Shown here: piece by piece, positions 6,552 through 63,489 of the stretch
How positions within the stretch are numbered: position 1 is the stretch's first letter
Layout: every line of letters begins with the position of its first letter
From: an uncultured Methanobacteriaceae archaeon
GTDB taxonomy: Archaea > Methanobacteriota > Methanobacteria > Methanobacteriales > Methanobacteriaceae
Length of the DNA stretch: 64,000 nucleotides
Direction of reading: 5' to 3'
Assembly (NCBI GenBank): GCA_963703015.1
Contig: OY969779.1
Coordinates: forward strand, 2,122,328-2,186,327
Notes under the pieces: model-generated
Seen by the model: only the letters and a program-made list of their open reading frames with translations
Told to the model about the DNA's origin: nothing
The model's database searches: none
Position numbers and translations under genes: made by a program

Positions 6552-7985
6552 TCATGTCATATTCACGTACAAATGTAGTGACCTGTAAACATTGGTTGTA
6601 TCTGGCAACTTATAGAGTAAGAACTGGATATTCTTGTAACCTGCTGAACTTGCAGTGAAACTGTAGGGTATTTGGGTTTGATTACCACTTGTTAGGGTTA
6701 TGTTCTGCTGACTCATCACAGTACCATTGGAACTTACTACCAATTCATAGTTAGTTGTCTGATACTCGTGGTTTACAACACCAATTATTACAGAACCATT
6801 TTGGCCAATTGTCAAGTTGGTTGGATAATTACTGGCATTACCATTGGGTCCTAAAATATAAAATTCTGTGAATGTTTCTCCTTGTTTGGGTTTTAAGACT
6901 ATGTAAACCGTTGTGGATATGGCCAATAAAACGGTTATAATTAATATGACTGAAAGAATTTTACTTGTTCTTGATTCACCTTTAAATTGTTCCTTAATTG
7001 AACTACCAAAACCACCAAAATTCACATAGAACTTTTCACCCTCAGGAACTCTTCTACGTCTGATAAACGCTATTAATAACATTATCAAAGTGAATGCTGA
7101 AAGAGATATAAGTATGGGGGTTAAACGAATTCCCCACGGGGTGTAGTTTAAAATTAATCCAATTAATGGTGTTACCGCAATGCTTAGACCAAAACTCAAT
7201 GCTAAACGTTCAATACCCTCCAAATCATCTTTTTTCGGAAACAACGCAGCAATTAACGAATATCCTGGTATAAATAATATGAGTAAAAGTCCAAGAATGG
7301 TTCTTACAGATGTATCATTCAACTTTGGGGTAACAATGAAAACAATTGTGAGGACAGTTGCTAATAATATTAACAATAAATCCTTTGAAACAAATTTAGG
7401 ATAAATATTTTTCGTTTTTTCTGTTTCCAAATCTGATTTTGGTTTATTTTTTTCTGAATTTTCTTTCCCTCTGTTTTTAGTTATAAACTGATCTTTGTTG
7501 CTATGTTCCTTAGATTCACCATATAACTCGGGTTTGATTGTATTTTTAACTTCATTCACTCTCGAATATACATATTTATTTTCATCACGGACTCTTCTCC
7601 TTCGAATAAGGGCAATGATTGTAAGAGTAATTGTAATCAATCCTAATAATTCTAAAATTAAGTTCAAATTGCTTTTTAGGAAATAATAATAAGTGTTCGG
7701 TATGAAATTTGATAAAACAAATACAATAGCAATACCTATCAATGGAAATCCAAAACTTAACGCTAACCTTTCAAAGAGATCTAGATCATTTTTTCGAGGA
7801 TATAAAACTGCAACCAATGAATATCCTGAAAGGAAAAGAATGAGTAAAATCAGTAGTACCGTCCTCAATGCATAATTCAATAAATTTGGGTATAAAATAG
7901 CCACAAATGCTGTCAATGTCATGATTAATATAATGACCAAATCTAAACTTTGAAACTTCATTTTCATTACAGAACACCATTTCAA
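6552..7985 (-). CDS. DUF1616-family membrane protein with a duplicated N-terminal TM module
   Basis: Two copies of GYSL.A.L.P.K.DL...ERLALSFG...IRRRRV, then FTEFYILG...A..YP and a soluble C-terminal domain. The start is probably a downstream ATG. Confidence 0.8.
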   Translation of the reverse strand: MKWCSVMKMKFQSLDLVIILIMTLTAFVAILYPNLLNYALRTVLLILLILFLSGYSLVAVLYPRKNDLDLFERLALSFGFPLIGIAIVFVLSNFIPNTYYYFLKSNLNLILELLGLITITLTIIALIRRRRVRDENKYVYSRVNEVKNTIKPELYGESKEHSNKDQFITKNRGKENSEKNKPKSDLETEKTKNIYPKFVSKDLLLILLATVLTIVFIVTPKLNDTSVRTILGLLLILFIPGYSLIAALFPKKDDLEGIERLALSFGLSIAVTPLIGLILNYTPWGIRLTPILISLSAFTLIMLLIAFIRRRRVPEGEKFYVNFGGFGSSIKEQFKGESRTSKILSVILIITVLLAISTTVYIVLKPKQGETFTEFYILGPNGNASNYPTNLTIGQNGSVIIGVVNHEYQTTNYELVVSSNGTVMSQQNITLTSGNQTQIPYSFTASSAGYKNIQFLLYKLPDTTNVYRSLHLYVNMT

Positions 7986-36307: not shown

Positions 36308-37330
36308 CTAAATTGGCCTGTCTAATGATAAGAAAGGTAAAAATTCTAAGTAGTGTTTTTTAAGGAGTTCAGGATGCTCATTCCAGTAAGTTCTGTCACT
36401 TTCATCTAATCTGAGGCCAGCTATATAATAAGCAAGTATTTGTGTGCCGATTTTATTAATTATTGTACTTACGAAGTATTTTCGGAGTGATTTAAATCTC
36501 CAGTAACAATATGCATTTTTTTCCACATTAAAACCCAGCTTTTCACCTAGATTACGCAAATTCTTAACTACACTGTCACCACTCAACTTATTTCCATAGA
36601 TATTCACAAAAATAGTATCATCATTATTTTTTATACGAATTTTCCTGTTTGCACCGTAACATCTATCTTTAAGATATGCTATGATTTCTCTTCCGACTTC
36701 AGGAGGGATAAATATATGATGCTTCACAGTGTTTTCACTACTTGTTAAATCCATGGTCAAAACTTCGGATAATACATCATCCTCAAATAGAAAGAGATCA
36801 TCAACATCTTCCAAATCAATTCCTATTATTGAACAGGCACTTAACAATTGATTTATTGTTAAATTTCTGATTTCTTGCTGACTTATTCCTGACAAAGCAG
36901 CCAAATGAATGAGTGCCCTTTCCCTTGGTGGAGAAACAGTTATCATTTGACAAATTTCTTCACAGGTTACATAGTCATCGAAACTCTTAGATATGACATC
37001 GTCGGTAAATAATTTCGTATTATTAATTACACTCAGATCAAAAGCTTTGTAAAATGAGCAGACAGCATAAAAATATAACTTCACAGTTGAATTAGATAGT
37101 TTCTTGGTTAGTAAATAGTCTTTAAATTTTGGTAGATATTTATAGATTGTACGATTCCTTGGTATAATATGTTGTTCTTCCTCTTTTGCTTTATCAATTA
37201 ATTCCGAAGGTTTTTTATTGGTTAATTCAACAAAATATTTCAAAGCAATTTTATAACTTTTTTGAGTGCCTGAAGAAATATTTTTTATTTCGAACCATTT
37301 TTCCATAAGATCTTCATCTTCACTATTCAT
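36308..37330 (-). mobile_element. Tyrosine-recombinase/integrase-family protein with degenerate catalytic motifs
   Basis: T...Y...L..F SAM-like N-terminus, RERALI...A.SG, KSLRKYF (HxLR position), AGL (GH position) and RTY. Confidence 0.7.
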
Positions 37331-47066: not shown

Positions 47067-50000
47067 TTACTTTAAAACAATAAATTTGTTGGAGTTTGAG
47101 CTCCCAAGGTAGATATTGTTGGACATGTACTTGGCTGTTAAGGTGTAGGTTCCTCTATGGAGTTTGGTAGTGTAGTAAAATGATGCCACACCATATTTAT
47201 TGGTTTTTCCAGAACCAACATATTTACCAGACACATAGAATCTCACAGATGCATTAGCTAGTTTGGTGCTGGTGTGAATATTGGTTAATGTGGCAGTTAA
47301 CTTTACTCTGTAGTTTTTTTTGCCATATACTTTGTATGTTAATATTTTTGTAGGTATTTTTTGAACAGTGAGGATTGTGCTGTAACTTGAACCTGAGTAA
47401 AGATTATCATTTTTATATTCTGCCCTTAAACTGTAGGATCCAGCAACATTTTTTACTAGGTAACTATAACTTGCAATTCCCGAAGCATTGGTCAATCCAC
47501 TTCCAACTAATTTACCATTAACATAGAAATATACTGTTCTACTTGAAACAACGAGGTTATTAGCGGTGTTTAGGAGTGTTGCTGATAATTTTAGCTTGTC
47601 TCCATAGTAGCTTTTCATGGATTTGAATATCAACTTGGATGAAACAAGATAAACTGTCCAACTTTTAGAATCTGAAGAAGAGCTGTAATCAACACCATCA
47701 GTATACTGTGCAGATAAAATATAGGATCCTGGGCTGTTAATGGCACATATCAATGTTCCAATACCTTCACTGTCAGTTGTAGTTGTTCCTAAGAGCTTGC
47801 CATTCACAAAGAAACTGATCAACTTATCTGAAATGCAGTTTCCATCTTCATCATATAATGAAGCCTTCAAACAGGTGTTGGCACAAGTATAGCTGGATAA
47901 TGGTGTAAGAGATAGTACTGTTTTTTCTGGGATGATCTCTAAAAGAGTTGTGGCCTCTGTTTTATTGAAATCATCATCACCCAGAAACTTAACCATTAAA
48001 TTATAATTAATATTTACAGTTTGTGAAACTTTGTAAACCCATGTTGCAACGCCATTCACATCTGTCTGGGCATCTCCAACTTCAACACCTTCAACATAGA
48101 AACATACAGTTTTACCGGAAATTGGTTTATTGGTATTATCCCTTAAAGTTGCGACCAGATTCAAATTGCTTCCACAATGTCCTGTAACAGTATCAACACT
48201 GATGGTTGATGGAATAAGTTTAACAATCAAGTTGTTTGAATTTTGAGACGAACAATAATTACCATCCTCAAAAAACTGAGCCAACACAACATAGGAATCA
48301 TCATTCTCAGATGGTGCTAAATTCCCACCACCGGGAGAAACTAAATTAACAGTCAAAACAGCAGCACCATCCTCATCTGTCAATGCACTGCCAAGTGATA
48401 CTCCATTAACTGAGAAATAAATTGGTTTTTTATCAAGACCTAAACCATTTTTATCTTCCAATCTTGCGGTTAAGTTAACATCAGTTCCTTTGTATCCTGT
48501 AATTGGATTCACTGTAATTTTTGTTGGCATTAAAGTGATATTGAGGGTGTTAGTTCCATTCGATCCAACATAAAAGCCATCAGAACTGAAAATTCCCATG
48601 ATAGTGTAAATACCGCTAATCTGTGTTAGGGCGTAATTGTAATTTCCTTTTCCGTCTGGGCCGGTTACATCTGTTCCGACTGGTGTTCCGTTTATGTAGA
48701 AGTTTATTGTTTTTCCTGTTACGGGGTTTCCATTGGTGTCTTTTAGTGTGGCTGTGAGGTTTATTCTATCTCCTTTGTAGCCTGTTACAGGGTTAATGGT
48801 GATTGTGGTTGATTTAAGATTAACCTGAAGAGAACTTGTTGAATTAGATGTTAAATAATTATTATCCTGTAAAAAAATGGCCATAATGGTGTAATTACCA
48901 CTGGATTGGCTTAAAGTATAAAACAAATTTGCAGTACCATTAGAATCTGTAGAAGCTGATCCAATGGATGTCCCATTAATATAAAAAACAACAGTCTTTC
49001 CAGCGACTGGACTTCCATTACTGTCATGGAGTGTTGCTGTGAATTTAACACCATCTCCAATGTACCCAGAAACTGGTTGGAGCGTGATATTGGTGCCAAT
49101 CATAATTTTTGAAACAATTAAAGCTGCTGTTCCATTACAGGCCGGAAAAACACCATCTCCTAAAAATTGTGCAACAACAGGGTAGCTACCAGGATCCTGA
49201 CTCAATGTGTAAGAAAGGGTAGCAACACCGCTACTATTTGTCATGGCAGTACCAACCAAAGTTCCGTCAACCAAAAATCTGATGGTTTTACCATTTACAG
49301 GCTGATTATTACCATCTTTAAGTGTTGCAACAAGATTTACAAGCTCTCCTTTATGTCCATTAATGGGATTCACATTCAAGGAAGATCCACTTAAAACAGT
49401 AACTATGCTTGACACATTTTGATCGTCAACATTGGCAGATATAATGGAAGAACCATTGCTGCTACCAGTAAAATTGGTGGTAGCAGTACCATTAACTGTC
49501 ATTAAAAGAATATTACTTAAAAATCCAAGAGAATCACAGCTGAAATTTACAATAAGTCCATCAGGAACAAAAATACCAGCATAAAGCAAGTCAGTATCTT
49601 CACCTGCACTGTTCCAGGTTAGATCAGCAGTGATATTTGAAACACAACCAATAATAATTTTATTTGAACTTGAAACGAGCTTTAAAACAATCCAGGGGTT
49701 CACATTAAACAATCCATAAATTTTAGATGGTGAACTGTTTGAACCCCACCAGTTGTTAGTGGCATTTAATGTTCCAGATGTATCTGGACTGTACAACTGG
49801 TAGGTATTTCCAACCACACTGTTGAAATTGAAAGTGGCAGCATTGTGATTGCTGAAAGAAGCACCATAAAGATTATTTTCTAACCTATTTGTGGTTACAA
49901 CATTATTAATGCCATTAATTGTCAGCCCGGCCTCTTTGTTGTAACACATGGAATTTCCAACCACATAACAGTTGGATCCTGTGATTGTGAGGCCTGTTTG

Positions 50001-51323
50001 ATTGTTGTAATTTAATGTGTTGTTGTAAAAATTGGTGGCATTGCAACCACTATTTATTCCGTTGTTGTTGTAGTTTAGAGTATTGTTAACAATCAAATTA
50101 TAATCTGCAGCACCAAAACTCTGTAGAACAATACCTATAGAACTATTATTAACTACATTGGAATCAACAACATTGTATGTGCCAATGAGTAAAATTCCTC
50201 CATCATCATTGTATAAAAAAGTATTTTTGCCCACTTTCACATGGTTCGCTGTTACTATGGCTCCATACATTTTATTATTTGAAAACCAGTTTCCAGTGAT
50301 GTTTGAGTAGTTGCTTGCGGAATTTATCCCTGCCTGATTGTAACTTAAATTGTTACCATCAACTACGTTGTAATCTGTATCAGAATAGTTTGCTAAGGTT
50401 ATTCCACAGTTGCCGTTGTTGGATGCTGTGTTGTTTAGGATTTGGTTGTTTCGTCCTGTTATGTCTAGTCCACTTACTAGGTTTGCAGTGGCTGTGTTGT
50501 TGGATATGGTACTGTTACTTAAGCAGATCCAGAAACCATTTTTATTGTTGGTTAGGGTGTTGCCACTTATGTTGAACTTTGTCGGGGTATTGGTCCCCAT
50601 CTGTTGTACTGCTATTCCGTCTTCAGCTCCTGTTACTGTGTTCCCTGTGATGATCATGCCCCGTGCATTGTCTGTTGTGTAAATTCCAGCTCCTGTGTAA
50701 CCTGTACAGCTTACTCTGTTGTTGGATACCGTGTTGTTTTCACTGTTATCATTGAATATGATTCCATTTAAGAAATTACTTATTGTGTTACCTGTCAGGG
50801 TGTTGCTGGTCACATTTCCGTATTCAAAGCTAATTCCATTCCCACCATCTGGATTAACACCAGTTATGGTGTTCCCAATTACCTGAGAGTTGTAAACATT
50901 ACCATAAAACTGTATTCCAACAAGTGATGCACCGGATATCACGTTGTTTTTTATGGTGCAGCTGTTGGCATTGTTAATCATGATACAGTAACTGCTGTTA
51001 GTCAATGCAAAGTTTTGAATAGAAGAGCCAGAACCACCAGAATTCACAACAAAAACAGCAGAACTAGAATCTTTAGATTTAATAGTTACGTTACCCGAGG
51101 CTTTAATCGATATTTTTTTATTGATGGATACACTCTCATTGTAGGAATATGATTTGTTGTTATTATCATAAACAGTAATACTATCTCCATCTGATGCTCC
51201 ATTAACAGCATTTTGAATGCTTTCACCAGGATGTACTGTGATGTTTGCAGCACTGATAGTTTGGATAGAAAACAGTAACATGCACATCAAGAACACATAA
51301 ACGATCAGTTTTTTTAACAACAT
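47067..51323 (-). CDS. Large adhesin-like protein: beta-helix plus about 7 Ig-like (Big_3-type) repeats
   Basis: N-terminus paralogous to 44297..46780. Repeats of L.ATL.D..G.P..GK.I.F.V.G...G.A.T...G.A. Confidence 0.85.
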   Translation of the reverse strand: MLLKKLIVYVFLMCMLLFSIQTISAANITVHPGESIQNAVNGASDGDSITVYDNNNKSYSYNESVSINKKISIKASGNVTIKSKDSSSAVFVVNSGGSGSSIQNFALTNSSYCIMINNANSCTIKNNVISGASLVGIQFYGNVYNSQVIGNTITGVNPDGGNGISFEYGNVTSNTLTGNTISNFLNGIIFNDNSENNTVSNNRVSCTGYTGAGIYTTDNARGMIITGNTVTGAEDGIAVQQMGTNTPTKFNISGNTLTNNKNGFWICLSNSTISNNTATANLVSGLDITGRNNQILNNTASNNGNCGITLANYSDTDYNVVDGNNLSYNQAGINSASNYSNITGNWFSNNKMYGAIVTANHVKVGKNTFLYNDDGGILLIGTYNVVDSNVVNNSSIGIVLQSFGAADYNLIVNNTLNYNNNGINSGCNATNFYNNTLNYNNQTGLTITGSNCYVVGNSMCYNKEAGLTINGINNVVTTNRLENNLYGASFSNHNAATFNFNSVVGNTYQLYSPDTSGTLNATNNWWGSNSSPSKIYGLFNVNPWIVLKLVSSSNKIIIGCVSNITADLTWNSAGEDTDLLYAGIFVPDGLIVNFSCDSLGFLSNILLMTVNGTATTNFTGSSNGSSIISANVDDQNVSSIVTVLSGSSLNVNPINGHKGELVNLVATLKDGNNQPVNGKTIRFLVDGTLVGTAMTNSSGVATLSYTLSQDPGSYPVVAQFLGDGVFPACNGTAALIVSKIMIGTNITLQPVSGYIGDGVKFTATLHDSNGSPVAGKTVVFYINGTSIGSASTDSNGTANLFYTLSQSSGNYTIMAIFLQDNNYLTSNSTSSLQVNLKSTTITINPVTGYKGDRINLTATLKDTNGNPVTGKTINFYINGTPVGTDVTGPDGKGNYNYALTQISGIYTIMGIFSSDGFYVGSNGTNTLNITLMPTKITVNPITGYKGTDVNLTARLEDKNGLGLDKKPIYFSVNGVSLGSALTDEDGAAVLTVNLVSPGGGNLAPSENDDSYVVLAQFFEDGNYCSSQNSNNLIVKLIPSTISVDTVTGHCGSNLNLVATLRDNTNKPISGKTVCFYVEGVEVGDAQTDVNGVATWVYKVSQTVNINYNLMVKFLGDDDFNKTEATTLLEIIPEKTVLSLTPLSSYTCANTCLKASLYDEDGNCISDKLISFFVNGKLLGTTTTDSEGIGTLICAINSPGSYILSAQYTDGVDYSSSSDSKSWTVYLVSSKLIFKSMKSYYGDKLKLSATLLNTANNLVVSSRTVYFYVNGKLVGSGLTNASGIASYSYLVKNVAGSYSLRAEYKNDNLYSGSSYSTILTVQKIPTKILTYKVYGKKNYRVKLTATLTNIHTSTKLANASVRFYVSGKYVGSGKTNKYGVASFYYTTKLHRGTYTLTAKYMSNNIYLGSSNSNKFIVLK

Positions 51324-51588
51324 ACCCCACCAAACCTAAATCATGTAATCAGGTTTGTATACTCACTTTAATATAATAGTTTCACCAACTTTTGTGCTAA
51401 AAATCACAATAAGAGCACTGTCAAATCAATAAATCCAATTTGGACAAATAGTAATATGGCCATAATAGGATTAGAACCCGGAAAAAACCACACTAAAATT
51501 TTAAAAAATAAGATAATGGCCTAAAAAAATCAGCAGAAAAGTAGGAAGCACAGATATGAATACTTTTTAAAATTTAGAATGAAAATCA

Positions 51589-52317
51589 CTATCTAAGCTT
51601 CAAGAATCTTAAAAACCTATCCTCCATGATGTTTAAAAAAAGCCCAATTTTCCCTGTTCTCCAAATACCGCAGCTAGTATCAATGGTTGAGTAGTCTTGA
51701 CCATGCTTATTCACAATATTTTTAAGGGTAATGTAATAACTCCGAGAAAAGGATTCTGTCCTAGAAGCATGATAAATACTAATGGGAACTACATAAACAG
51801 CTTTTCCAAGTTTTTTAGAGTCTAAACAATAATCAGCACCATATAAGTGCCAGTCAGGACATGTTTTTTCATCAAATTCCAGTTTTTTAAACACGGATCT
51901 ATCAACTACAAAGAGACATTCATCAACTGTTTGAACCTCCATTGGATAATCAAGATTCATACCAACATCTTCTGGAGGATATCCATCCTTAATATTACTG
52001 TACATAACATATTTTCCATTGTTTTCTGTGTAACCTGCAACACCTGCAACACCCAGATTTTCGAGTTTCTCAACAACTGCTTCTAGATCCTTGAGGCAGT
52101 CAGGATATGAGAGGTCAACATCTTGATGAACAAAGAAAAGATAATCGTTACCTGCCTTTTTTGCTCCGAAATTCAATGCTTGAGCTGCTGATTCATATTT
52201 TCCATCACAATTATCTACTAATATGAGTTCATATTCCATGTTTTGCTGTTTTAAACTGTTTAACAAATTAGTTTCAAGTATGGTTCTGTTGTTGTACACA
52301 GTTATTATGCTCATCAT
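51589..52317 (-). CDS. GT-A glycosyltransferase (Glyco_tranf_2_5-like)
   Basis: Motifs SII..YNN, SAAQALN.G, FVHQDV, TVDEC and WHLYGAD.C. Confidence 0.8.
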   Translation of the reverse strand: MMSIITVYNNRTILETNLLNSLKQQNMEYELILVDNCDGKYESAAQALNFGAKKAGNDYLFFVHQDVDLSYPDCLKDLEAVVEKLENLGVAGVAGYTENNGKYVMYSNIKDGYPPEDVGMNLDYPMEVQTVDECLFVVDRSVFKKLEFDEKTCPDWHLYGADYCLDSKKLGKAVYVVPISIYHASRTESFSRSYYITLKNIVNKHGQDYSTIDTSCGIWRTGKIGLFLNIMEDRFLRFLKLR

Positions 52318-52368
52318 TACAAACTAGCTCCAGATTAGATATCCATTTTTAATTTAGAAATACCATTT

Positions 52369-53328
52369 TTACAGATACTTGTCTGTAAACAGAATCCATA
52401 CAACGAAGAGAATGACCAGAATTGGCAGGCTAAGTAGAAACATTGCAATGGTGATGTAACAGGTTCTAGTTGCAATGTATGGGAGGGTGTTGTAAATAAC
52501 ATCTTCTTCCTGGTCAAAATTGGTTCTAAAACCATACAACAGGGTGAAAAACATGGTTAAACCAAAAAATACCACGAAAACACCCAATAGATATACAACA
52601 GGAAGATGGTAAACAGGCAACATGAAGCTGTTTGGCAGTAGGTAGTAAATGCTTCCAAGTAAAAAGATGAAACCAACCAACAATGACACATATTCAATCA
52701 TGTTCGCTGTCTTTTTTCCTGTTCTAACTGCAAATGTTCTGCAATCAAAGGACAAATCCAGATCATATTCTATGATGGTGTGCTTAATTTCATGGGCAAA
52801 GTATATCATAAACAAACCTAAAAGCAGCAGATCTGTTCCTAAATTGAAATAATTAAATTCACTAAGCAAAACCATGGATGGAATCACAAAGAAACCAAGG
52901 GATGCTATGGCAGGACCCAAAAGACTTTCTTTGAGTCGTATACTGAAATTGCTGTAGAAAAGGAACAGTAAAATTAGTACTAAGACGAGTGCTACTGGTG
53001 TGTTTGAACTGTAAATGAGAACTGAAAAAAACAATGAAACCAGGGACAAAACAACTATACTGACCCAGAGAAACTTCTTGGAAATCACTCCCTGTGTAAC
53101 TGGATTCTTAGATTTAGGATCCTTAGCTGCATCTCCCACAGCGTTACACATGAATCCTGCAGCAAATGCAAATACCAATGGAAGAATGTATAAAAGCGAC
53201 CATGGGCTGCTTATGAAACCATTGTACATTAAAATTGCAAAGAATGGAATCATGGTGATGAAGTAACCACCATATTTAAGAGATCTTGTTGTTCTGTAAG
53301 CGTAGATAAATGATTTTATACCGTTCAT
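52369..53328 (-). CDS. UbiA-family prenyltransferase
   Basis: Polytopic membrane protein with Asp-rich motif NAVGDAAKD..SKNP..G, LFYS...IRLK, and a second motif EYDLD...RTFAV..G. Confidence 0.78.
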   Translation of the reverse strand: MNGIKSFIYAYRTTRSLKYGGYFITMIPFFAILMYNGFISSPWSLLYILPLVFAFAAGFMCNAVGDAAKDPKSKNPVTQGVISKKFLWVSIVVLSLVSLFFSVLIYSSNTPVALVLVLILLFLFYSNFSIRLKESLLGPAIASLGFFVIPSMVLLSEFNYFNLGTDLLLLGLFMIYFAHEIKHTIIEYDLDLSFDCRTFAVRTGKKTANMIEYVSLLVGFIFLLGSIYYLLPNSFMLPVYHLPVVYLLGVFVVFFGLTMFFTLLYGFRTNFDQEEDVIYNTLPYIATRTCYITIAMFLLSLPILVILFVVWILFTDKYL

Positions 53329-53335
53329 TTTTATT

Positions 53336-54244
53336 TCATCCTTCTTTTCTTTTGATAAAGAGCAATAAAAGACTAATTATTATGAATGGACCCATTGTAG
53401 TTGTTCCAATGAGCAGATATTCTTCATGACCCAATAAAATGGCAGATAATCCATATATTACAAAGAACATCACATATATTCCAATCACAGCTAAATCTAA
53501 ACCTGAATAATCATCTTCTGTAGAATCTTCCTTCTGTAAAGATTCTATTAATCTGAAGATTAAAGTGGCAGAGAATGCTATTAAGAACCATCCGACAAAA
53601 TTACTTAATGGAATTCCATAATAGGGACCTCCACCTATCCAGATCCAACCTTGGGTTGTCACAACCACGGGATCTATGATCATGTCAAGATTGGCAGCAA
53701 CCAACCCACTTATCACGGCCAATAAAACAGTAATTGTCAAGGCATAAACAAAATGGTCCCTCTTGAAGTTTGGTTTTTTGGAACCTGATTTGATAACGAT
53801 GTCTGAAACTGTGTAGGAAATATATAGGATTACCATCCATGAGATCACGGTTGTTAGGGGAACAACTCCAAAAATGAATGGCGTTAATATTGGATTGTAG
53901 TAGTAATGTCCGAATATGGTGCCATATGTAACCCCAATAATTTCTGGTACAGATCCGAATATTAGTGCCAGTAGGTAGAATATTCCTGTTTTAACTCTGC
54001 CCTTTGTAATTGTGGAGTGGATCATTACCAGTCCAAAGGCTGTGTATATCCATAAAGAACCTAAAAATTCTGTAATTAGATTTTTATATCCAATTAAACC
54101 CGTGATGTAGCATATAAATGTAATTAGAAGGAGTATTAGATAGATGGGAAAAATAATTTTCCTAAGTTTAGGATCCCTACCCATTAAAATTGAAACTATG
54201 GCAATTGCAACAATAATGAGTCCTGTATAAAGAATGCTGATCAT
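53336..54244 (-). CDS. CruF-like (carotenoid biosynthesis / isoprenoid hydratase family) membrane protein
   Basis: Motifs E..GV..G..FG.YYY, GVVPL....SW, D...DPV...G.W.W...GPYYGIPLSNF.GWF. Confidence 0.8.
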   Translation of the reverse strand: MISILYTGLIIVAIAIVSILMGRDPKLRKIIFPIYLILLLITFICYITGLIGYKNLITEFLGSLWIYTAFGLVMIHSTITKGRVKTGIFYLLALIFGSVPEIIGVTYGTIFGHYYYNPILTPFIFGVVPLTTVISWMVILYISYTVSDIVIKSGSKKPNFKRDHFVYALTITVLLAVISGLVAANLDMIIDPVVVTTQGWIWIGGGPYYGIPLSNFVGWFLIAFSATLIFRLIESLQKEDSTEDDYSGLDLAVIGIYVMFFVIYGLSAILLGHEEYLLIGTTTMGPFIIISLLLLFIKRKEG

Positions 54245-54323
54245 TTTTACAACCTAGGGTAATTTTTTTTATACAACTATTTGATCTGCAGTTAATAATT
54301 TATATAATTTTCAAAACTACAGT

Positions 54324-55757
54324 TTAAGCCCTTAATTTTCTGATAATATCCATATCTACCTCGTCAATACCTCGAACAATATATAGAACAATGAAGTACA
54401 CAACTATCCCTACAAACACCAATAAAAATAGGTTTAAATTGATGAAATAAACTAGAAACAAGCTCATAACAATGGTTGAAATTATTATGCGGGACAAATC
54501 CTTAAAAACCACCTTCAATGAAACACCATAACCTAACCTGTAAGACACATATATTATATAGCTGACCAGCACAATTTCGGTGATTAAAGTGGCAACACTA
54601 GCACCAACATAGCTGTATGATGGAATCAGGATTAAATTCACCACAATATTGATTATTAAGCAGATTATGGATATCTTGGTTATTATGATCTGTTTGTTGA
54701 TGGATTGTAGCAGTTGAATGTAGGCTGCTCCTGCAAATGTGAAAACTACGGTCCATACCAGAATTTGGAGTGCAATGATGGAAGGTTCATATCCTGAACC
54801 ATAAAGAAGGAGTATTATTTGCTTTGAAAGTATGGATGTACCAACTCCAAGGGGAATGCCTATAATGAGCATGTACTTAAAATATCTTTCATAGAGCAGC
54901 TTCAAATTGTGACCTGAAGAATCAGAGTAAAGTCTGGACATCACAGGATAAACTGCCATATTTATGGCATTTGGAAGCAGAAGTGCTATGTACATCAACC
55001 TGTAAGCTGCACTGTACCATCCAACAGCCTCTGTACTCTTGAGTATGGATAATATTATGGTATCAACGTAGGTGTAGAGCATTCCACTGATCTGTATGAG
55101 TCCAAATGACCAAGCTTCATTAATGGTTGGAATCCAAAAATTTAGGTCAAACTCAAGTTCATTTTCAGAAAAACCTCTGAAATATATTAATGTACTATAG
55201 ATCAGCACCACAATACTTGTAATAACATAAACAACTGCAAAGTACACTATGCTGAGTCCAAGGTATATTCCAAGTACTGTACCAGAAAGTAGCACCATGC
55301 TGTTCATGATATTTGCAAGTGAAAGATATTCCATTCTTTCATTTGCCTGGAAAATTGCATTTAAAAATGTATAAAAAGAACTAATAATAACAGACAACGT
55401 AATTAGATAAATTGTAATGGATTCTGTCCAGTTGTATCCAATGATGTTTACTGTTGAAACAACGAGAAAAAAGGTAACAAATGACAATATAAATTTCATT
55501 AAAAGGCCGTTTAGAACGTATTTGCCTGTGAGAGATTTTTTACGTGCAAGATCCCTGACCATGAGGGTGCTTATTCCCATGTCTGCAAATATTCCAAATA
55601 TGGCTCCAATTGAAAGTGCCAGTGATATAATCCCAAACCCATTGGCTCCCAGATAACGGGCAGTGTAAACCAAAGTAAAAAAAGCCAATATATACGTTAA
55701 AATTTGTGAAAAGAAGACCAAACCAACATTTTTACTGATCTTTTGGATTGTATTCAT
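54324..55757 (-). CDS. Oligosaccharide flippase (Wzx)
   Basis: Motifs ARYLG..GFG, D.G, D..ILS......VG.YSAAYR and IP.YSYVGA. Confidence 0.9.
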
Positions 55758-56168
55758 TTATAATACCTTTTTTTAATAGATTTCTGGAACTTCCAAACAC
55801 ACTAATTTTTTTTAATGAGACATATCCCTGTTTGGACCATTTTATTTTCCATAAGAAATTTAAAACAACTGTGCTTGATCCCGGATATTAATCATCAAAT
55901 TTGTTCAAATTGTTACTATCAATATTTTAATTGGACGCCCAGAGATAAATATTTTTTTATGAGTAATAGGATGTAAGAGACAACATTAAAATGATAAAGA
56001 ATATTTATTAATCATTATCAACAATAATATGTTAGTCGTTAAAAATTTCAAAAATAATTTCATATCAAAATAAGAATTTTATACATTTCAATCAAACCAT
56101 AAAACTTTTATATTTTCATTGTACCAAAAAAATTAGAAATTTTTTAATAAAAAAAATCTGGGGGAAGT

Positions 56169-57281
56169 TTGATCATGAATATACTGATGATAAATTACCT
56201 TGAAACAACTTCTCCCGGGGGTATCAGTAAAACAGTGATGGAACTGGCTCAAAACATTTCTAAAAAAAATGAAGTAACAGTTCTTCAACCGAATCCTTCC
56301 AAACTATCCCCTGAGGAATCAATAAATGGATTTAAAATCATTCGAGTTTCATCCTCCATTGATAACACCAAATATCTCTACGGTCTAAACTTCGAAATCT
56401 ACAGGTACCTAAAGAAACATTTCATGGAACTAAATCCCGACGTAGTTCATGTTCATGGTTACCATCATTTAATGCCCATAGAATCTATTCATACAATTAA
56501 AAACATCAACCCACATGTACCTGTCATATTCTCACCACACCTAGACATTGTAAGGGGCAGATTTGTAGGAAAGTATCTCTGGAACATTTACAATATATTT
56601 GCCAGGACAGTATTCACGAAATCTGCCGGGATCATATCGTGTTCAAAATTTGAATCTGAAAATATCTCAGAGATTGGGGTTGATCAAGCTAAAATAACCA
56701 TCATACCCCATGGTGTGGATTTAATTGAACCCAAAAACGATAAAAATCCAGGAGAAACAATTAAACTCCTATACACCGGCCATTTGATACCCAGAAAGGG
56801 TATTGATCACATACTTGAAGGATTAAACTGTCTGATAATGGATAAAGATGTTAAAAATGTTGCTTTGACGGTTGTTGGTGATGGTCCAGAAAAACAGAAG
56901 TTAATTAAAATGGCTGAAAACATGGGAATACAGGACTACGTCGAGTGGAAATCATTTTTATCTAATGAAGAGCTCATAAAAACAGTTAAGAGTGCTGATA
57001 TTTACATGCTGCTTTCTAGATCAGAAGCCTACGGAATTGCTGTTGCAGAAGCTCTTGCACTTGGAACTCCTTGCATAGTGACCAATAGAACTGCTTTAAA
57101 GGAGTTTTCAAATGAAAATGGATGTTACACAGTGGAATATCCTCCGGATCCTGAAGAAGTGGCAGAAACCATAATAAAAGTTTACAACTCTAATAATGGG
57201 GTGGGACCCCTATCAAGCAAGATCAGGACATGGGGCCAAGTTGCTGAAGATTATGAGGTAATTTACCGGTCTGTAATTTAG
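56169..57281 (+). CDS. GT4 glycosyltransferase
   Basis: Motifs PGG, HVHG, IPHG, GHL..RKG and EAYGIAVAEALALG. Confidence 0.88.
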   Translation: MIMNILMINYLETTSPGGISKTVMELAQNISKKNEVTVLQPNPSKLSPEESINGFKIIRVSSSIDNTKYLYGLNFEIYRYLKKHFMELNPDVVHVHGYHHLMPIESIHTIKNINPHVPVIFSPHLDIVRGRFVGKYLWNIYNIFARTVFTKSAGIISCSKFESENISEIGVDQAKITIIPHGVDLIEPKNDKNPGETIKLLYTGHLIPRKGIDHILEGLNCLIMDKDVKNVALTVVGDGPEKQKLIKMAENMGIQDYVEWKSFLSNEELIKTVKSADIYMLLSRSEAYGIAVAEALALGTPCIVTNRTALKEFSNENGCYTVEYPPDPEEVAETIIKVYNSNNGVGPLSSKIRTWGQVAEDYEVIYRSVI

Positions 57282-57319: not shown

Positions 57320-58912
57320 TTGGAAGGAATCATGATGATGGAATACAAGAGGATAATCAATTTACTCTGGATAATACCGGGAATAGTTGCATTTTTCCTG
57401 GCTTTAATCCCTACTGTTGCAAATTCATGGCCACTGACCCTTGATATATACACGCATATTCACATTGCTCAAGTTTACAGCCAATATGGAATCACATTAG
57501 TTGATCCACTCACAAACCCTCCTACAGGAACACCTATAGCTTACCCTCCTCTGTTTAGTTTGATATTAACGTTTTTAACAGGTATTTTTAAGATAGACTA
57601 CTTCACCATAGCCAGGGTGTTACAACCTGTCCTTGCTTTGCTTGCTGTTTCATCCATCGCCTACACAGCAAAAAAATTTTATGGAAATTATGCCGGGATA
57701 TCTGCAGGATTTCTCATAATCTCAAGTTTTCTATTTGTGAGATTCATATCTCCACTACCAGAAACCCTTGCAATGATATTTGTGCCTCTGACAATCTATT
57801 TCTATTACAAATCAGCAGTTTCCAAAGAGTATAAATACGCAATTTTATCCAGCTTCCTGTTTTTAGTAGTTATATTAACGCACCAAGCAACAACTTTAAT
57901 ACTGTTTACAACTGTGACAGCAATTACAATTGTCACAGCCCTAATTAACAGGGACAAAATTTATATATACATCTACCCCTTGTTTCTTTCAATACCCTTA
58001 ATAATAGGGATTTTACTTTCATTAGCTGCCTTGGTTGTAGCACCAAGCTTCGTATCCAAAATTTTAAGCTACGGAGTAACAGCTGTCACAGGTTACACAT
58101 CCACACTACCAATCAGTGATCCAATCAGTGTTTACAAATACCTGGTTTACTTGGGTGTGGTACTCATATTTGCAATAGCAGGAGCAACAGTTGCCCTTAA
58201 AAGACGTGAAACAAGGGATATATTCATTTTGGTATGGATAGTGGCGGTTTTCTTGATGAGCAATTCCTACTGGTTTGGAGTGAATGTCTACACCATAAGA
58301 GTACTTGTACACCTTCTGATTCCACTATCAATACTTGGAGGGCTTGGTTTAAGTTACATCTACTTGGATTACAAAAAAACAGAATTCACAAGTATCAGGA
58401 TCAGAACTGCACTACTTATAGTGGTATTCATTGTGGCCACCCTGTTTGGATATGTAACTGTATCAGATCCCCAGATAAACCAACTCCCGAAATACAATGC
58501 ACAGCCCTACAATCAAACATACTTAATAATACCACAACTTACACCACCAACCAACTCAGAAGTGGAATTAGCTGATTGGTTCAAACAAAACGCAGATAAA
58601 AATTCATCTGTAGTTTCTAACAACTATGCAGTTAATTTGTTTTTACAATCTGAAACTGACCAACCAATAGCAGGTGTTCAATCATCAGAACATGTTATTG
58701 AATGGGGATTTGGACCTGATGAACTCAAACAAAAGAATATAGGTTACTACGTGTTTGATAAAAGACTTAATTACACATCTAACTCCACTGAAAAAATCAT
58801 AAGTGAAGGTAGCTTCATCTTCTACAACAACCACAACAACATCAGCTCGCTACTACCGTCAAGCTCTCAACTCGTTTATCAAAACCAGAATTTCATGGTA
58901 TTCAAGATATAA
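57320..58912 (+). CDS. GT-C-like polytopic membrane protein (STT3/PTPS-related type)
   Basis: D.Y.H motif in the first loop, YPPLF, about 12 TM helices and a soluble C-terminal domain. Confidence 0.65.
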   Translation: MEGIMMMEYKRIINLLWIIPGIVAFFLALIPTVANSWPLTLDIYTHIHIAQVYSQYGITLVDPLTNPPTGTPIAYPPLFSLILTFLTGIFKIDYFTIARVLQPVLALLAVSSIAYTAKKFYGNYAGISAGFLIISSFLFVRFISPLPETLAMIFVPLTIYFYYKSAVSKEYKYAILSSFLFLVVILTHQATTLILFTTVTAITIVTALINRDKIYIYIYPLFLSIPLIIGILLSLAALVVAPSFVSKILSYGVTAVTGYTSTLPISDPISVYKYLVYLGVVLIFAIAGATVALKRRETRDIFILVWIVAVFLMSNSYWFGVNVYTIRVLVHLLIPLSILGGLGLSYIYLDYKKTEFTSIRIRTALLIVVFIVATLFGYVTVSDPQINQLPKYNAQPYNQTYLIIPQLTPPTNSEVELADWFKQNADKNSSVVSNNYAVNLFLQSETDQPIAGVQSSEHVIEWGFGPDELKQKNIGYYVFDKRLNYTSNSTEKIISEGSFIFYNNHNNISSLLPSSSQLVYQNQNFMVFKI

Positions 58913-58968: not shown

Positions 58969-60162
58969 ATGTTGAACATGAAAATAGCTTTAGTTGCACC
59001 CATGGATCCGAAAACAGGGATAAGTAATTACACAGAGACCCTGGCCATCGAACTTTTAAAGCTTGGCCAAAAAGTGGATATTGTGGCACCTGAAAACTCA
59101 AAAAATACACAACTCACCAAGATGGATGGCGTGAACCACACACTCCCAGAAGATTACAAGGTTTCCAACCATGATGTAACCCATTTTCAGCTTGCAAACT
59201 CTCCACTTCACGAATTTCAACTTCATTTAATTCAGGATCATAAAAAAGACCTAACCTTAAACTCGAACATCATCACAACAGTTCATGATGCGAGAAATTT
59301 TGATGTATTCAACTTCAAATGTTCTAAATGCATATTATTTGGACTACAACTTCCTGAATCAAAATTGATCTATCCCTACGATGTGGTTGACAGGGGTTTT
59401 CAAAGAATAAGTAATCTTCTCCTGTTTCACAACACAAGTGCCATTGATGAATATAAAACCCGTTACAACCTCGATCAATCAATATTTAGGCGGGTACTTC
59501 ATCCAGCCTATAGAATACCGGGCATAGACAGCTCTTGGAAACTAGAGGGTGGTAGTATCAAAACTTTGGTTGCACCGGGATACATATCGCCCTACAAAGG
59601 TCAGGATATTTTAATTAAAGCAGTTAAAAGCTTAGATATGAATTTTAAACTGATATTTGTTGGGAAGATTTTGGATGATGACTATGGTAGGTATCTCCGT
59701 AACTTGGTAACTGAAAATCAATTGGAAAAAAAGGTGGAGTTCAAGGGATTTGTATCAGAAGAGGAATTTATCAAAACAATAGACAATGCCGAGGCAGTAC
59801 TGGTACCTAGACTCACGAGTCCATGGCTCAAGAATAAATCAGTTTTCAAGTTGAGGAAACTCATGGGTTTAAATGTATTAATTAATCAATCCACCAGCGG
59901 AGTTTTAACCAAGGCTTTGGCATCTGGAAAACCAGTAATATGTTCAAAAAATCAGGGATTTGCAGATTACATAAATGAAGATAATGGTATAATGTGTACC
60001 AATACAGCTGAGAGTTGGGCTCAAGCAATGAAATATATCCTGAAAACTCCAAATAAAACAAAGGAAATGTCTGTTAAATCCAGACAATTTGCTGAGGAGG
60101 AGTTGAGCCCTAAAAAAATTGCAGAAGAACACCTTAAATTCTACGGTATAAATCTAAAATAA
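58969..60162 (+). CDS. GT4 glycosyltransferase
   Basis: Motifs GI..YT..L, T.HD, GYI.PYKG and SGVL..ALA.GKPVI. Confidence 0.82.
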   Translation: MLNMKIALVAPMDPKTGISNYTETLAIELLKLGQKVDIVAPENSKNTQLTKMDGVNHTLPEDYKVSNHDVTHFQLANSPLHEFQLHLIQDHKKDLTLNSNIITTVHDARNFDVFNFKCSKCILFGLQLPESKLIYPYDVVDRGFQRISNLLLFHNTSAIDEYKTRYNLDQSIFRRVLHPAYRIPGIDSSWKLEGGSIKTLVAPGYISPYKGQDILIKAVKSLDMNFKLIFVGKILDDDYGRYLRNLVTENQLEKKVEFKGFVSEEEFIKTIDNAEAVLVPRLTSPWLKNKSVFKLRKLMGLNVLINQSTSGVLTKALASGKPVICSKNQGFADYINEDNGIMCTNTAESWAQAMKYILKTPNKTKEMSVKSRQFAEEELSPKKIAEEHLKFYGINLK

Positions 60163-60178: not shown

Positions 60179-62359
60179 ATGAAATTATTAAATCCCCTTA
60201 AAATGAATGATTGGAATATTCGATATCTCATTATCACTGTTGTGCTGTTCCAGATTTTGCTTTGGACTTCCATAATAGCGGATTTTTACGGAATTGACAT
60301 CCCACTTTTGAGGGGAGTTTCAGCATTAATAGCTCTATTTTTCCTCAATGGTATATTAATCCTCAGAATTCTCCGAATTCATGAACTTGACAGTATCAGA
60401 AATCTGCTTTATGCATTTGGTTTGAGTACTGCATCTATAATGTTCTTTGGAATGCTGGTTGATTTTGCATATCCATTGATGGGCATAACCCAACCAATAT
60501 CAACTGATCCTCTGTTGATCACATTTACAATATTTACAGGGTTTCTCTGTTATTTGAGTTACAGAAGGGATAAAAATTACAACCAACCTGAAATAATAGA
60601 TACAAAGGGTTACTCAACACCCCTCCTAATATTTATGCTGCTCCCATTTACAGGAATATTTGGAGCCTACTTAATGAACACATATGGAAGTAATGCTCTT
60701 CTCATAATCATGTTCTTTTTAATAGCAATTGTACCATTTTTAGTGGCCTACAACAAGTTCATCCCTAAAAAGATGTATCCATTTGCGATATTTTCCATTG
60801 CATTGACACTCCTCTTTTCAACATCACTCATCTCATCCTACATAGTTGGATGGGACATAAACCTGGAGTACTACTTCACCAACTTGGTTGTTACCAACTC
60901 ATACTGGAATTCATCAGTGCCAGATCTTTTAAATGCAATGTTAAGTCTGGTTATAATAGTTCCAATTTTCTCCAAAATTTCAGGTTTGTCTGTTGTAACC
61001 ATATTCAAGGTTGTATATCCATTCCTGTTTGTATTGGTACCAATTGGACTTTACTCAATATTTTCTAGGCAGACCAACAAAAAAATAGCCTTCTTTGCAT
61101 GTTTCCTTTTTGTAACAATATTCATGTTCTTTTTGGAGATGCCCTACCTCGCAAGACAGGAAATTGGGGAACTATTCTTTGTGCTCATGATAATGCTCAT
61201 GATAGAGGATGGTGTATCAGATAAAAACATCTTGATAATGACCATGATCTTCATACCTGCCCTGTTAGTGTCTCATTATTCCATGGACTACATCTACATA
61301 TTTCTGGTAGTAACTGCCTACTTGATAATTTTACTTAGAAATATGAATTTGGCCAAAAAATATCCAATTCTGGCCAAATGGCCATTTATCAGCTTTTTCT
61401 TTAAGAGAACAGATCAATATGAAAAACCCAAGATGAGGTACAAACTCCAGATACTACTTTTATTGAGTGTCACAGTTGTTTACTACCTGTTTGTTTCAAG
61501 TTCTGTGCTTTTCCACTTAACAGTTACCACAATAAACAACCTCATCACTCTAAGCTACCTTTTCCTGTTTAATCCACGTGCTCTTATGGCTGTAGGTATT
61601 GTTACCAGTGAAAAATCTTTTTTAAGAAGCATTGCCCTGGTGATGCACCTTTTGATAGAATTTTTGATATTTGTGGGAATTGTTTCGTTGTTGTACAGGC
61701 GTACAAAAATGAAATTCAACGAAAATTTCGGCTTGTTTTCGGTTATGAGCTTTTTACTTTTGATATTGGTACTTGTTGTACCATTCCTTGCAGGTGCACT
61801 CAACCCTGAAAGATTCTATCAAATAGCCCTGATATTTTTGTCTGTTTTCTTTGTTGTGGGATGGTTACAGTTTTTCAACTTCCTAAACAAAAAATTAGGA
61901 TCAAGATGGTCCAAAGAATCAGTTAAACAGTCATCATTTAAACTCATGGCCCTGTTTCTGGCTGTTTCACTACTGTTTAATGGGGGAGTTGTGTACGAAC
62001 TTCTGCATGATAAACCTGCTTCATTGGTCCTTCACAGTTCAATGGACGGACCTAAGTTTAACACCCTTGAAGTTACTGGTGCAGAGTGGATAACTCAATA
62101 CAGGGACAACGATAATGTTTATGCAGATTCGTACAGATTTTTACTCCTAAATGGCTTCATACCATACGATAAAACTAAACCAGTGAGTTATTCGCCAAAT
62201 GGTGGATCTTACATGTTTTTAGGTACATACAATCTATTAACTGGAGAGTTTGGTATACCTACTCCTGGTCAAACCACCCTAACCTATTACAGCATAGCCA
62301 ACCTGACGAATCAGGCCAGTAGCATATACGACAATGGTGGATCAAAAATATTCCTTTAG
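60179..62359 (+). CDS. DUF2206-family polytopic membrane protein
   Basis: Motifs GWDI..EYY, LARQEIGE, SHYS, ERFY and IYDNG. Paralog of 32114..34264. Confidence 0.78.
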   Translation: MKLLNPLKMNDWNIRYLIITVVLFQILLWTSIIADFYGIDIPLLRGVSALIALFFLNGILILRILRIHELDSIRNLLYAFGLSTASIMFFGMLVDFAYPLMGITQPISTDPLLITFTIFTGFLCYLSYRRDKNYNQPEIIDTKGYSTPLLIFMLLPFTGIFGAYLMNTYGSNALLIIMFFLIAIVPFLVAYNKFIPKKMYPFAIFSIALTLLFSTSLISSYIVGWDINLEYYFTNLVVTNSYWNSSVPDLLNAMLSLVIIVPIFSKISGLSVVTIFKVVYPFLFVLVPIGLYSIFSRQTNKKIAFFACFLFVTIFMFFLEMPYLARQEIGELFFVLMIMLMIEDGVSDKNILIMTMIFIPALLVSHYSMDYIYIFLVVTAYLIILLRNMNLAKKYPILAKWPFISFFFKRTDQYEKPKMRYKLQILLLLSVTVVYYLFVSSSVLFHLTVTTINNLITLSYLFLFNPRALMAVGIVTSEKSFLRSIALVMHLLIEFLIFVGIVSLLYRRTKMKFNENFGLFSVMSFLLLILVLVVPFLAGALNPERFYQIALIFLSVFFVVGWLQFFNFLNKKLGSRWSKESVKQSSFKLMALFLAVSLLFNGGVVYELLHDKPASLVLHSSMDGPKFNTLEVTGAEWITQYRDNDNVYADSYRFLLLNGFIPYDKTKPVSYSPNGGSYMFLGTYNLLTGEFGIPTPGQTTLTYYSIANLTNQASSIYDNGGSKIFL

Positions 62360-62424: not shown

Positions 62425-63489
62425 TTAGATCAATAACATAATTCCATCCCATGTACCATTTAGAAATGATCTGAGTTTGGTTTGATCTCTACGTACAAAT
62501 GTGAGTGAAAATAGTATTTTCCAGAAGAAGTAAAGGAAGTAATATAAGCTTGAAGTGAAACATTCCCACAGATTTTCGTTGAGTTTCATGAAGAGGAACC
62601 TGTTTCTGATCATGTAGTAAATGCTCAGTGCACCAGCATCTGAACCATAACATTTGTGCCAAATTTTTGAATTATGGGTATAAATGGTTTTAAACCCTGC
62701 TTTTTTACCTCTCATACACCAGTCTATCTCTTCCCAGTAGGTGAAGTAGTCTGGATTAAAGAAACCAACGGTTTCTCCAAGTTTTTGACTCACGAGCATG
62801 CATGAACCTTCAACATAGTCCACGATCCTATCATTGTTGTACTGCCCATTATCCGTTTCATCCTTAGCAACAGGATGGGGTTCTGAGGTGTTTAGGTTGA
62901 TGTTTCCACCAGCAAAACTCATGAGATTTGAAACTTCATTGGAGTTGTAGTAATAAATTTTTGGACCTGCAAATCCCACATCTTTAAATTTGGAAACAGA
63001 ATTTATCATATTTATAAGAAATTGGGGATCAACTACGGTGTCATTGTTTAATAGCAAATAATAATCTGGTTTTAGTTTATTGGATGCGAATTTAAGTGCA
63101 ATATTGTTACCACCTGTAAAACCATAGTTAGAATCGTTTTTGATCATGATGATGTTTTCGAGTCTGCTGTTGTTTATAAAATTGGTTGGGTCAAGCTCAA
63201 CAGATTCTAAATCTTTTAAATCAATTTCAAACACATTTTTAACTCTATTTTGGGGATGGTTTTTGTTCTTGATTCTTTGATAATAATTTCTGATCTGTTC
63301 GATGGAATCATCATGGGAGGCATTATCAACCAATATCATATGGTAATTAGGATAATCTAAACCATTAATAGATTCCAAACATTCTATGGTGTCCTGCCAT
63401 CCATTCCAATTCAGTACAATGAATGCAACTCTTGGATAGGTTGGATTTTCATTTAGAAATTTGCCCATACTATTATTATTTCCCTTCAC
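62425..63489 (-). CDS. GT2 glycosyltransferase (rhamnosyltransferase-like)
   Basis: Motifs IVLNWNG, DNAS, N.GF.GGNN, LLNND, G.CML and Y.EE.D.C.R. Confidence 0.88.
   Translation of the reverse strand: MKGNNNSMGKFLNENPTYPRVAFIVLNWNGWQDTIECLESINGLDYPNYHMILVDNASHDDSIEQIRNYYQRIKNKNHPQNRVKNVFEIDLKDLESVELDPTNFINNSRLENIIMIKNDSNYGFTGGNNIALKFASNKLKPDYYLLLNNDTVVDPQFLINMINSVSKFKDVGFAGPKIYYYNSNEVSNLMSFAGGNINLNTSEPHPVAKDETDNGQYNNDRIVDYVEGSCMLVSQKLGETVGFFNPDYFTYWEEIDWCMRGKKAGFKTIYTHNSKIWHKCYGSDAGALSIYYMIRNRFLFMKLNENLWECFTSSLYYFLYFFWKILFSLTFVRRDQTKLRSFLNGTWDGIMLLI

Follow-up and report, generated by a model that had tools for sequence, protein, structure and literature searches.

The stretch of DNA described here, referred to as the window, comprises 64,000 nucleotides of contig OY969779.1 (positions 2,122,328 to 2,186,327) from an uncultured Methanobacteriaceae archaeon whose nearest relatives are Methanobacterium species. 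Its subject is a four-gene operon on the minus strand, in which the gene for a CruF-like membrane protein stands beside that for a divergent UbiA-superfamily transferase. Coordinates are positions in the window unless marked as genome (C1) or locus (L with a number) positions, and protein families were assigned by Pfam and NCBIfam profile matches. The first gene (54324..55757) encodes a flippase of 477 amino acids (aa) that matches PF13440 and PF01943 (2e-43, 149 bits over residues 9–276); MurJ and MatE matches span the remainder, which places the protein in the Wzx/MOP family, and the NCBIfam model Wzx_EPS gives 69 bits, under its cut-off. It is followed by the gene for a CruF-like polytopic membrane protein of 302 aa (53336..54244; PF04240 Caroten_synth, 2e-30), a candidate isoprenoid C=C hydratase, by the UbiA gene (52369..53328; 319 aa; PF01040, 55 bits), and lastly by a gene for a soluble GT2-type glycosyltransferase of the Glyco_tranf_2_5 family (51589..52317; 242 aa; PF13712 7e-16, PF00535 9e-9). 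The intergenic gaps are 79, 7, and 51 nt in this order, the value of 7 nt being exact. A Shine-Dalgarno-like stretch, AAGGATGA, lies ahead of the UbiA gene, overlapping the CruF-like stop codon, and we propose from this layout that the two genes form a translationally coupled pair and the functional core of the operon. Past the stop codon of the GT2 gene, a T-rich stretch on the same strand (51470..51588) contains several T5–T7 runs, as read from the sequence; because archaeal terminators are known as oligo-T, it is likely the terminator of the operon. The first-pass annotation had described four co-oriented genes with short gaps, including 7 nt between the CruF-like and UbiA genes, and the open reading frames bear this out; its family calls (flippase, CruF-like, UbiA, and glycosyltransferase) agree with Pfam at the superfamily level.

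The CruF-like protein scores 106.7 bits on PF04240. Its best match among the three NCBIfam CruF models (TIGR03460, NF041333, and NF045693) is TIGR03460 at 68 bits, below the equivalog cut-off of 154.7, and the other two scores are 43 bits against a cut-off of 300 and 42 bits against 400, the latter for GCarotHydoxCruF. Five residues that are common to haloarchaeal CruF (E101, D187, D191, N215, and W219) are kept in the operon protein and in all full-length copies from orthologous Methanobacteriaceae loci. An AlphaFold2 model of the protein has a pLDDT of 92. A fold search with this model found no solved structure with a CruF-like fold, the best match being a mycobacterial Insig homolog (4xu4) that is not significant (E 0.035, TM 0.33/0.49), and a PDB sequence search with the CruF-like and UbiA proteins gave no match. 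In a tree of 134 PF04240 sequences, the UbiA-associated copies form one group with those of a Bathyarchaeia metagenome-assembled genome (MAG) and of another euryarchaeal lineage. Haloarchaeal CruF falls on a different major branch, together with a stand-alone paralog of the present genome and a Methanosarcina-like group. Where the UbiA-associated genes occur in tandem, the duplications appear to be lineage-specific.

The third protein of the operon belongs to the UbiA superfamily, as PF01040 is matched above the cut-off (55.3 vs. 34.2 bits), the predicted fold is that of UbiA, and both acidic motifs are present though altered. In the first motif, with invariant residues N62-x3-D66-x3-D70, the canonical second-position Asp is gone (NAxxD, not NDxxD). 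A middle motif holds the invariant residues Y125-S126...R131-x-K133-E134. The second acidic motif reads E180-x2-H183-T184-x2-(E/D)-x3-D191, with E187 in the operon copy and with the first Asp replaced by Thr184, so that two acidic residues are retained in each motif. The AlphaFold2 model (pLDDT 87) was assigned the UbiA fold by Foldseek, with TM-scores of 0.6–0.7 to 4tq3, 7bpu, and 8j8j. Since it resembles the structures of AfUbiA, digeranylgeranylglyceryl phosphate (DGGGP) synthase, and a mycobacterial phosphoribosyltransferase about equally, the fold does not discriminate between functions. The LyeJ/CrtEb models PRK12875 and PRK13105 do not match the operon protein, and its orthologs score 22–33 bits on them; on PRK12875, UbiA proteins of this type reach at most 29 bits vs. 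380–437 bits for real LyeJ. The models for decaprenyl-phosphate phosphoribosyltransferase (PRK12324) gave no match to the operon protein at E<=0.01, and one relative scored 18 bits. A profile built from the orthologs and searched against 1.84 billion representative proteins retrieved 1433 clusters at E<=1e-3, of which only 40 reached E<=1e-30; by such profile distances, this UbiA represents a small subfamily that has diverged very strongly from most of the superfamily. A tree that also included haloarchaeal LyeJ and the genome's own paralogs joined these UbiAs in one well-supported clade on a long stem. Two metagenomic members of the subfamily, P0087 (465 aa) and P0088 (595 aa), carry C-terminal extensions of 150–275 aa in which a Pfam search found no domain, and they may be fusions.

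The best NCBIfam match of the operon UbiA is PRK12884, the model of DGGGP synthase, and the two share a fold (TM about 0.6–0.66 to 7bpu and 6m31). The match is weak, however (35.6 of the 269 bits required), the acidic motifs of the operon protein are altered, and the genuine DGGGP synthase is encoded elsewhere in the genome (1834075-1834920), where PRK12884 gives 318.9 bits. The operon protein is accordingly not an ordinary DGGGP synthase, an identity that the first-pass annotation had named, together with an unconserved linkage, as fatal to its proposal. The genome holds six UbiA paralogs. Among them, at C1:695113-697033 and C1:728638-730796, are two tandem divergent copies with weak MenA/ChlG-like matches and one further, very divergent copy that adjoins an apparent geranylgeranyl-reductase gene, the latter judged from its translation alone. 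A second PF04240 gene of 279 aa stands alone at C1:115342-116181 (L001 1357-2196) with no isoprenoid genes nearby, and its product is nearer than the operon copy to the branch of haloarchaeal CruF.

The genome is a single contig of 2.72 Mb and is 99.9% complete, which allows the question of carotenoids to be put to all of it. A search of the whole genome with PF00494 (SQS_PSY) gave no match to a phytoene synthase. A CrtI-class desaturase is likewise absent genome-wide, the best TIGR02734 match reaching 30 bits against a cut-off of 238 and covering the N-terminal dinucleotide-binding part only. The earlier remark that neither a phytoene synthase nor a desaturase lies in the window is thus true of the entire genome, and the full carotenoid pathway that would have overturned the first-pass proposal was not found in the genome-wide search for crtB/crtI-type genes. 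A hidden carotenoid pathway was rejected on the same scores. Because both enzymes are missing from a genome of this completeness, the CruF-like protein cannot act on a carotenoid.

The pairing of the two genes is conserved. Orthologs of the operon UbiA were found in 18 of 301 sampled Methanobacteriales genomes, in 4 of 29 genera and a single family, and they are patchy even within the organism's own genus, where about a third of the sampled genomes have one. Seventeen of the ortholog loci, all in Methanobacteriaceae, were mapped with the proteins of the window; they belong to four genera labelled g1, g4, g7, and g10, with Methanobacterium lacus in g1. At every one of the 17 loci the UbiA gene is flanked by CruF-like genes, from one to three in number, and a GT2 gene follows directly wherever downstream sequence is present. 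This GT2 is the Glyco_tranf_2_5 ortholog in g1, g4, and g7 and a different GT2 (PF00535), recurring in six loci, in g10. The full-length g1 and g4 loci have a flippase ortholog next to the module, and in some g10 loci it stands 6–8 kb off. M. lacus AL-21 (CP002551.1, about 851-868 kb) reproduces the arrangement in full, with two copies of the CruF-like gene, and Methanobacterium sp. SMA-27 is a further module-bearing strain. An alignment scan with the CruF-like protein, limited to one genome per species, yielded 351 relatives, of which 79 loci were kept; among these, an adjacent UbiA ortholog occurs only in Methanobacteriaceae and in four MAG loci of another euryarchaeal lineage. In the latter the order is CruF-like, CruF-like, UbiA, and fasciclin with overlapping gene ends, and one of the four contigs is labelled bacterial, probably through misbinning. 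The UbiA-adjacent CruF-like copies of this lineage (L066 6723-7679; L067 6753-7715; L068 1455-2417; L069 6753-7715) carry D187N, N215T, and Y114R at invariant sites, which suggests a diverged or non-catalytic paralog. The Bathyarchaeia MAG has a PF13712 glycosyltransferase gene followed by a CruF-like gene at the end of one contig and a UbiA ortholog (39% identity) at the end of another, so that the pair is probably present there and split across two contig ends. The product of this glycosyltransferase gene (L064 4465-5817, 450 aa) shows a faint resemblance to methyltransferases in its C-terminal part.

As the arrangement recurs in every orthologous locus examined, it is not due to chance, and the conserved unit, hereafter the module, consists of one to three CruF-like genes and one UbiA gene, usually with a GT2. 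The first-pass annotation had counted a lack of conservation, joined to an ordinary DGGGP synthase, as a ground for abandoning its proposal; the linkage is instead kept in four Methanobacteriaceae genera and beyond. Its four-gene unit holds for the CruF-like/UbiA pair with the GT2 and fails for the flippase, which is adjacent in some genera only, and its single CruF-like gene is correct for this locus and not for the loci as a whole. Full-text literature searches found no description of the module.

PF04240 as a whole is present in 80 of 301 Methanobacteriales genomes and also in Patescibacteria, Actinomycetota, Syntrophaceae, and others with heterogeneous neighbour genes. The 91 neighbours of distant PF04240 genes that were checked include three phytoene synthases and two UbiAs and no conserved partner. 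Twelve of the PF04240 loci are from Patescibacteria MAGs (L074, L078, L081, L084, L090, L096, L097, L101, L102, L112, L115, and L122), and the neighbours of the genes in this group have no common theme; members of the candidate phyla radiation (CPR)/Patescibacteria, in which PF04240 proteins are frequent, are not expected to produce carotenoids. Two Syntrophaceae MAG contigs (L072 and L075) each contain five tandem CruF-like paralogs, at about 1150-6750 in each locus and with no UbiA gene adjacent; the family has expanded here, for no evident reason, in an anaerobe that is non-carotenogenic.

The operon lies among genes for the synthesis of surface glycans. An AT-rich divergent intergenic region of 411 nt (55758..56168), read from the sequence, separates it from a second set of genes on the plus strand, namely a GT4 glycosyltransferase (56169..57281; PF00534 4e-31, PF13439), a polytopic membrane protein of 530 aa (57320..58912), a second GT4 glycosyltransferase (58969..60162; PF00534 4e-20), and a DUF2206 polytopic membrane protein (60179..62359; PF09971 8.6e-58). 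The second GT4 is kept, and the DUF2206 protein holds the same place, in g1 loci. The first GT4 adjoins the module in g1 and is within about 5 kb of it in g10, and the divergent layout recurs in M. lacus and other loci. The 530-aa protein gave no match to Pfam at the default threshold or in a PDB sequence search. A weak match to PMT_2, a GT-C family (E 0.014, 16 bits, residues 76–216), is below the cut-off and positionally coherent; the protein may be a glycosyltransferase of the GT-C type or a polymerase. A GT2 glycosyltransferase on the minus strand marks the edge of the cluster (62425..63489; PF00535 5.5e-15, PF13641), and a homolog of it follows the Glyco_tranf_2_5 gene in g4 loci. Downstream of the operon are two beta-helix/Big-domain surface proteins, with BacA beyond them. 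One of the two, on the minus strand (47067..51323; PF16640, PF02369, PF13229, NosD), has homologs downstream in M. lacus and other g1 loci; that it is the acceptor of the glycan is speculation. An open reading frame about 14 kb from the operon (36308-37330) shows weak phage-integrase-family signals, below cut-off, and hints that the surface-protein and glycan region may be a variable island.

The same setting is found elsewhere, as GT4, sugar-nucleotide, and large membrane-protein genes surround the module in the Methanobacteriaceae loci that were checked. One g10 locus that was examined has genes for UDP-glucose dehydrogenase, an epimerase, GT4s, and a 618-aa membrane protein. With its MOP flippase, GT4, GT2, large membrane proteins, and divergent layout, the region resembles Wzx-dependent surface polysaccharide clusters and archaeal glycan clusters, although these are normally without UbiA or PF04240 genes. 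The family of the 530-aa protein, which has no Pfam model, is found in 148 of 301 Methanobacteriales genomes and in three copies in the present one, and clusters of the GT4/530-aa/DUF2206 type are therefore common in the order. Most of the paralogous clusters lack the module, given its 18 genomes against 148, and the CruF-like and UbiA genes are a rare addition to one cluster of this type. The operon is best explained as an accessory unit that a Methanobacterium carries within a gene locus for its cell-surface glycan.

Other organisms offer parallels for a UbiA protein working with a PF04240 protein. In haloarchaeal bacterioruberin synthesis the two are LyeJ, a lycopene elongase/1,2-hydratase of the UbiA family, and CruF, a C50 carotenoid 2'',3''-hydratase. 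According to the passage on this synthesis in PMC9258230 (citing Yang et al., 2015), the prenylation belongs to LyeJ and the hydration to CruF. The LyeJ-type UbiA gene of haloarchaea and related genomes is located beside CruF or within about 3 kb of it. This system and the module share the direct adjacency of an archaeal UbiA-superfamily gene and a PF04240 gene, the E, D, D, N, and W residues in both PF04240 proteins, and a second acidic motif without its first Asp (Ala in LyeJ, Thr in the module UbiA). They differ in that the host of the module has no lycopene or any carotenoid pathway, in that its UbiA gives no match to the LyeJ model, in the major branch on which the CruF-like copies fall, and in the variable CruF-like copy number, the GT2, the flippase, and the glycan-locus setting of the module. 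The LyeJ-CruF parallel drawn in the first-pass annotation consequently does not extend to close kinship, given the low PRK12875 scores, the separate CruF-like branches, and the unresolved depth of the UbiA tree; direct orthology with the module as ancestor of the haloarchaeal pair was considered and is not supported for the last two reasons. Another pairing is seen in two Methanosarcina-like genomes (3.2–3.6 Mb, Halobacteriota), in which a CruF-like gene adjoins a UbiA gene (L160 5513-7349 and L161 4754-6509). The UbiA of this pair is orthologous (E 1e-61) to a different paralog of the present genome, at 1723248-1724144, and the L160 pair, the one locus annotated, adjoins genes for mevalonate kinase, isopentenyl-phosphate kinase, IDI2, and RNase J. 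Because three independent pairings exist, the UbiA and PF04240 families are likely to cooperate on isoprenoid substrates.

In cyanobacteria, CruF, a carotenoid 1',2'-hydratase, and CruG, a GT2 glycosyltransferase, make myxol glycosides. The module is similar in having a hydratase-family protein followed by a GT2-type transferase for an isoprenoid end group, and unlike it in the low GCarotHydoxCruF score, in the absence of a carotenoid substrate, and in the presence of a UbiA partner. By applying the logic of LyeJ with CruF and of CruF with CruG to a non-carotenoid lipid, we tentatively favor, at somewhat less than even confidence, a pathway in which the pair prenylates an isoprenoid lipid other than a carotenoid and hydrates a C=C bond in it, after which the lipid is glycosylated and flipped. 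As we infer it, the two acidic, Mg2+-binding motifs of the UbiA protein would activate a diphosphate donor by ionising it, the most likely donor being a short prenyl diphosphate, and the donated group would pass to an isoprenoid of the membrane, for example an unsaturated lipid of the archaeol type or a polyprenyl phosphate. The conserved Glu/Asp pair of the CruF-like protein would hydrate a trisubstituted isoprenoid C=C bond to a tertiary alcohol, and the number of CruF-like paralogs (1–3) may equal the number of double bonds hydrated. The adjacent GT2 would glycosylate the hydrated, prenylated product, and the Wzx flippase would bring this product, or a glycan assembled upon it, across to the outer face of the membrane, where the divergent GT4s, the 530-aa protein, and the DUF2206 protein would finish or attach the surface glycan. 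A non-carotenoid isoprenoid that is prenylated, hydrated, glycosylated, and flipped was already the idea of the first-pass annotation; the conserved linkage and the glycan context strengthen it, and its chemistry and substrate stay at the level of proposal.

Several observations weigh against this pathway. To our knowledge, a hydroxylated or extra-prenylated lipid has not been reported from Methanobacterium. The operon UbiA fits none of the functionally defined UbiA subfamilies, its clade has no resolved deep placement in the UbiA tree, and its chemistry could differ because one canonical Asp is lost in each motif. The CruF-like proteins of the module are not the closest relatives of proven CruF, the stand-alone paralog being nearer. 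Most distant PF04240 proteins, in Patescibacteria, Actinomycetota, and others, are without conserved neighbours and so give no clue to a general function of the family outside carotenoids, and in the other euryarchaeal lineage a fasciclin gene, not a glycosyltransferase gene, stands beside the module.

The main rival is the synthesis of a lipid-linked sugar donor of the decaprenyl-phosphoribose type, which we regard as unlikely. The UbiA protein would move a phosphosugar, e.g., phosphoribose from phosphoribosyl pyrophosphate (PRPP), onto polyprenyl phosphate, the product would be moved outward, and a GT-C-type enzyme (the 530-aa or the DUF2206 protein) would pass the sugar to a surface glycan or protein, and the CruF-like protein would assist by handling or re-orienting the lipid carrier. 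The model is the mycobacterial decaprenyl-phosphate phosphoribosyltransferase Rv3806c with its GT-C arabinosyltransferases, which has in common with the module a UbiA fold, an envelope-glycan locus, and large polytopic proteins. Such a role would fit the constant presence of the module among glycan genes in the Methanobacteriaceae loci that were checked, the weak PMT_2 match of the 530-aa protein and a weak DUF6541 match of its g10 counterpart, and the lack of an obvious gene for an initiating phosphoglycosyltransferase in the Pfam annotation of the cluster. The best TM-score of the UbiA model is also to the mycobacterial enzyme (8j8j, 0.64/0.70), a similarity that is common to all UbiA structures, with nearly equal scores to DGGGP synthase and AfUbiA. 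The curated phosphoribosyltransferase models nevertheless miss the operon UbiA, and DprE1/E2-like and phosphatase genes are not adjacent to the module. We know of no CruF-like partner in the Rv3806c system, and a sugar donor would explain the glycan context and not the obligatory CruF-like partner, leaving the invariable pairing with one to three proteins that keep the acidic residues of the hydratase family unaccounted for.

An equally unlikely alternative is that the pair remodels bulk membrane lipids independently of the glycan genes, modifying archaeol or tetraether, for instance with hydroxyl or extra isoprene groups in adaptation to stress, and that its place among the glycan genes reflects nothing more than the variable, island-like character of that locus. 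The patchy distribution of the pair, its position outside a glycosyltransferase operon in the other euryarchaeal lineage, the mevalonate-pathway genes beside the different UbiA/CruF-like pair of Methanosarcina-like genomes, and the frequency of PF04240 in non-carotenogenic methanogens are all consistent with such a role. It is, however, at odds with a GT2 gene directly downstream in all four Methanobacteriaceae genera despite differing surroundings, with the PF13712 glycosyltransferase gene that precedes the CruF-like gene in the Bathyarchaeia contig, and with the short gaps to flippase and GT2 and the terminator-like stretch only past the latter. Finally, it is improbable that the CruF-like protein is a non-enzymatic scaffold or substrate-delivery partner of a UbiA whose prenyl acceptor is not an isoprenoid, e.g., a sugar or aromatic head group, since the varying number of tandem copies per UbiA (1–3), the D187N and other changes in the second euryarchaeal lineage, and the match to a lipid-binding Insig homolog, which would suit such a partner, are offset by the retention of the Glu/Asp residues of active CruF in all full-length Methanobacteriaceae copies and by the non-significance of the Insig match.

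Overall, the CruF-like/UbiA module is real and conserved, and it has so far gone uncharacterised. PF04240 carries the label of a carotenoid biosynthesis protein in annotations everywhere, and yet more than a quarter of the sampled Methanobacteriales genomes encode it, as do many other organisms in which carotenoid synthesis is not expected. The module is the first conserved and interpretable non-carotenoid context of this family, which stands there with a UbiA partner of its own, a glycosyltransferase, and a flippase. A wider proposal, which we consider possible but doubtful, is that pseudomurein-walled methanogens and a few other anaerobic archaea make an undescribed non-carotenoid isoprenoid (an extra-prenylated, hydrated, and glycosylated tertiary alcohol of the archaeol or polyprenyl type) as an anchor or carrier of surface glycans, and that PF04240 proteins are general isoprenoid hydratases. 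Cultured strains such as those of Methanobacterium lacus carry the module, so that the question is open to direct test. The product, once found, would extend the chemistry of lipids or glycan carriers known from the archaeal cell envelope, would correct the widespread annotation of PF04240, and could show the origin of the logic of prenylation plus hydration in bacterioruberin synthesis. If the family does consist of general isoprenoid hydratases, its use on carotenoids in haloarchaea and cyanobacteria would be a special case.

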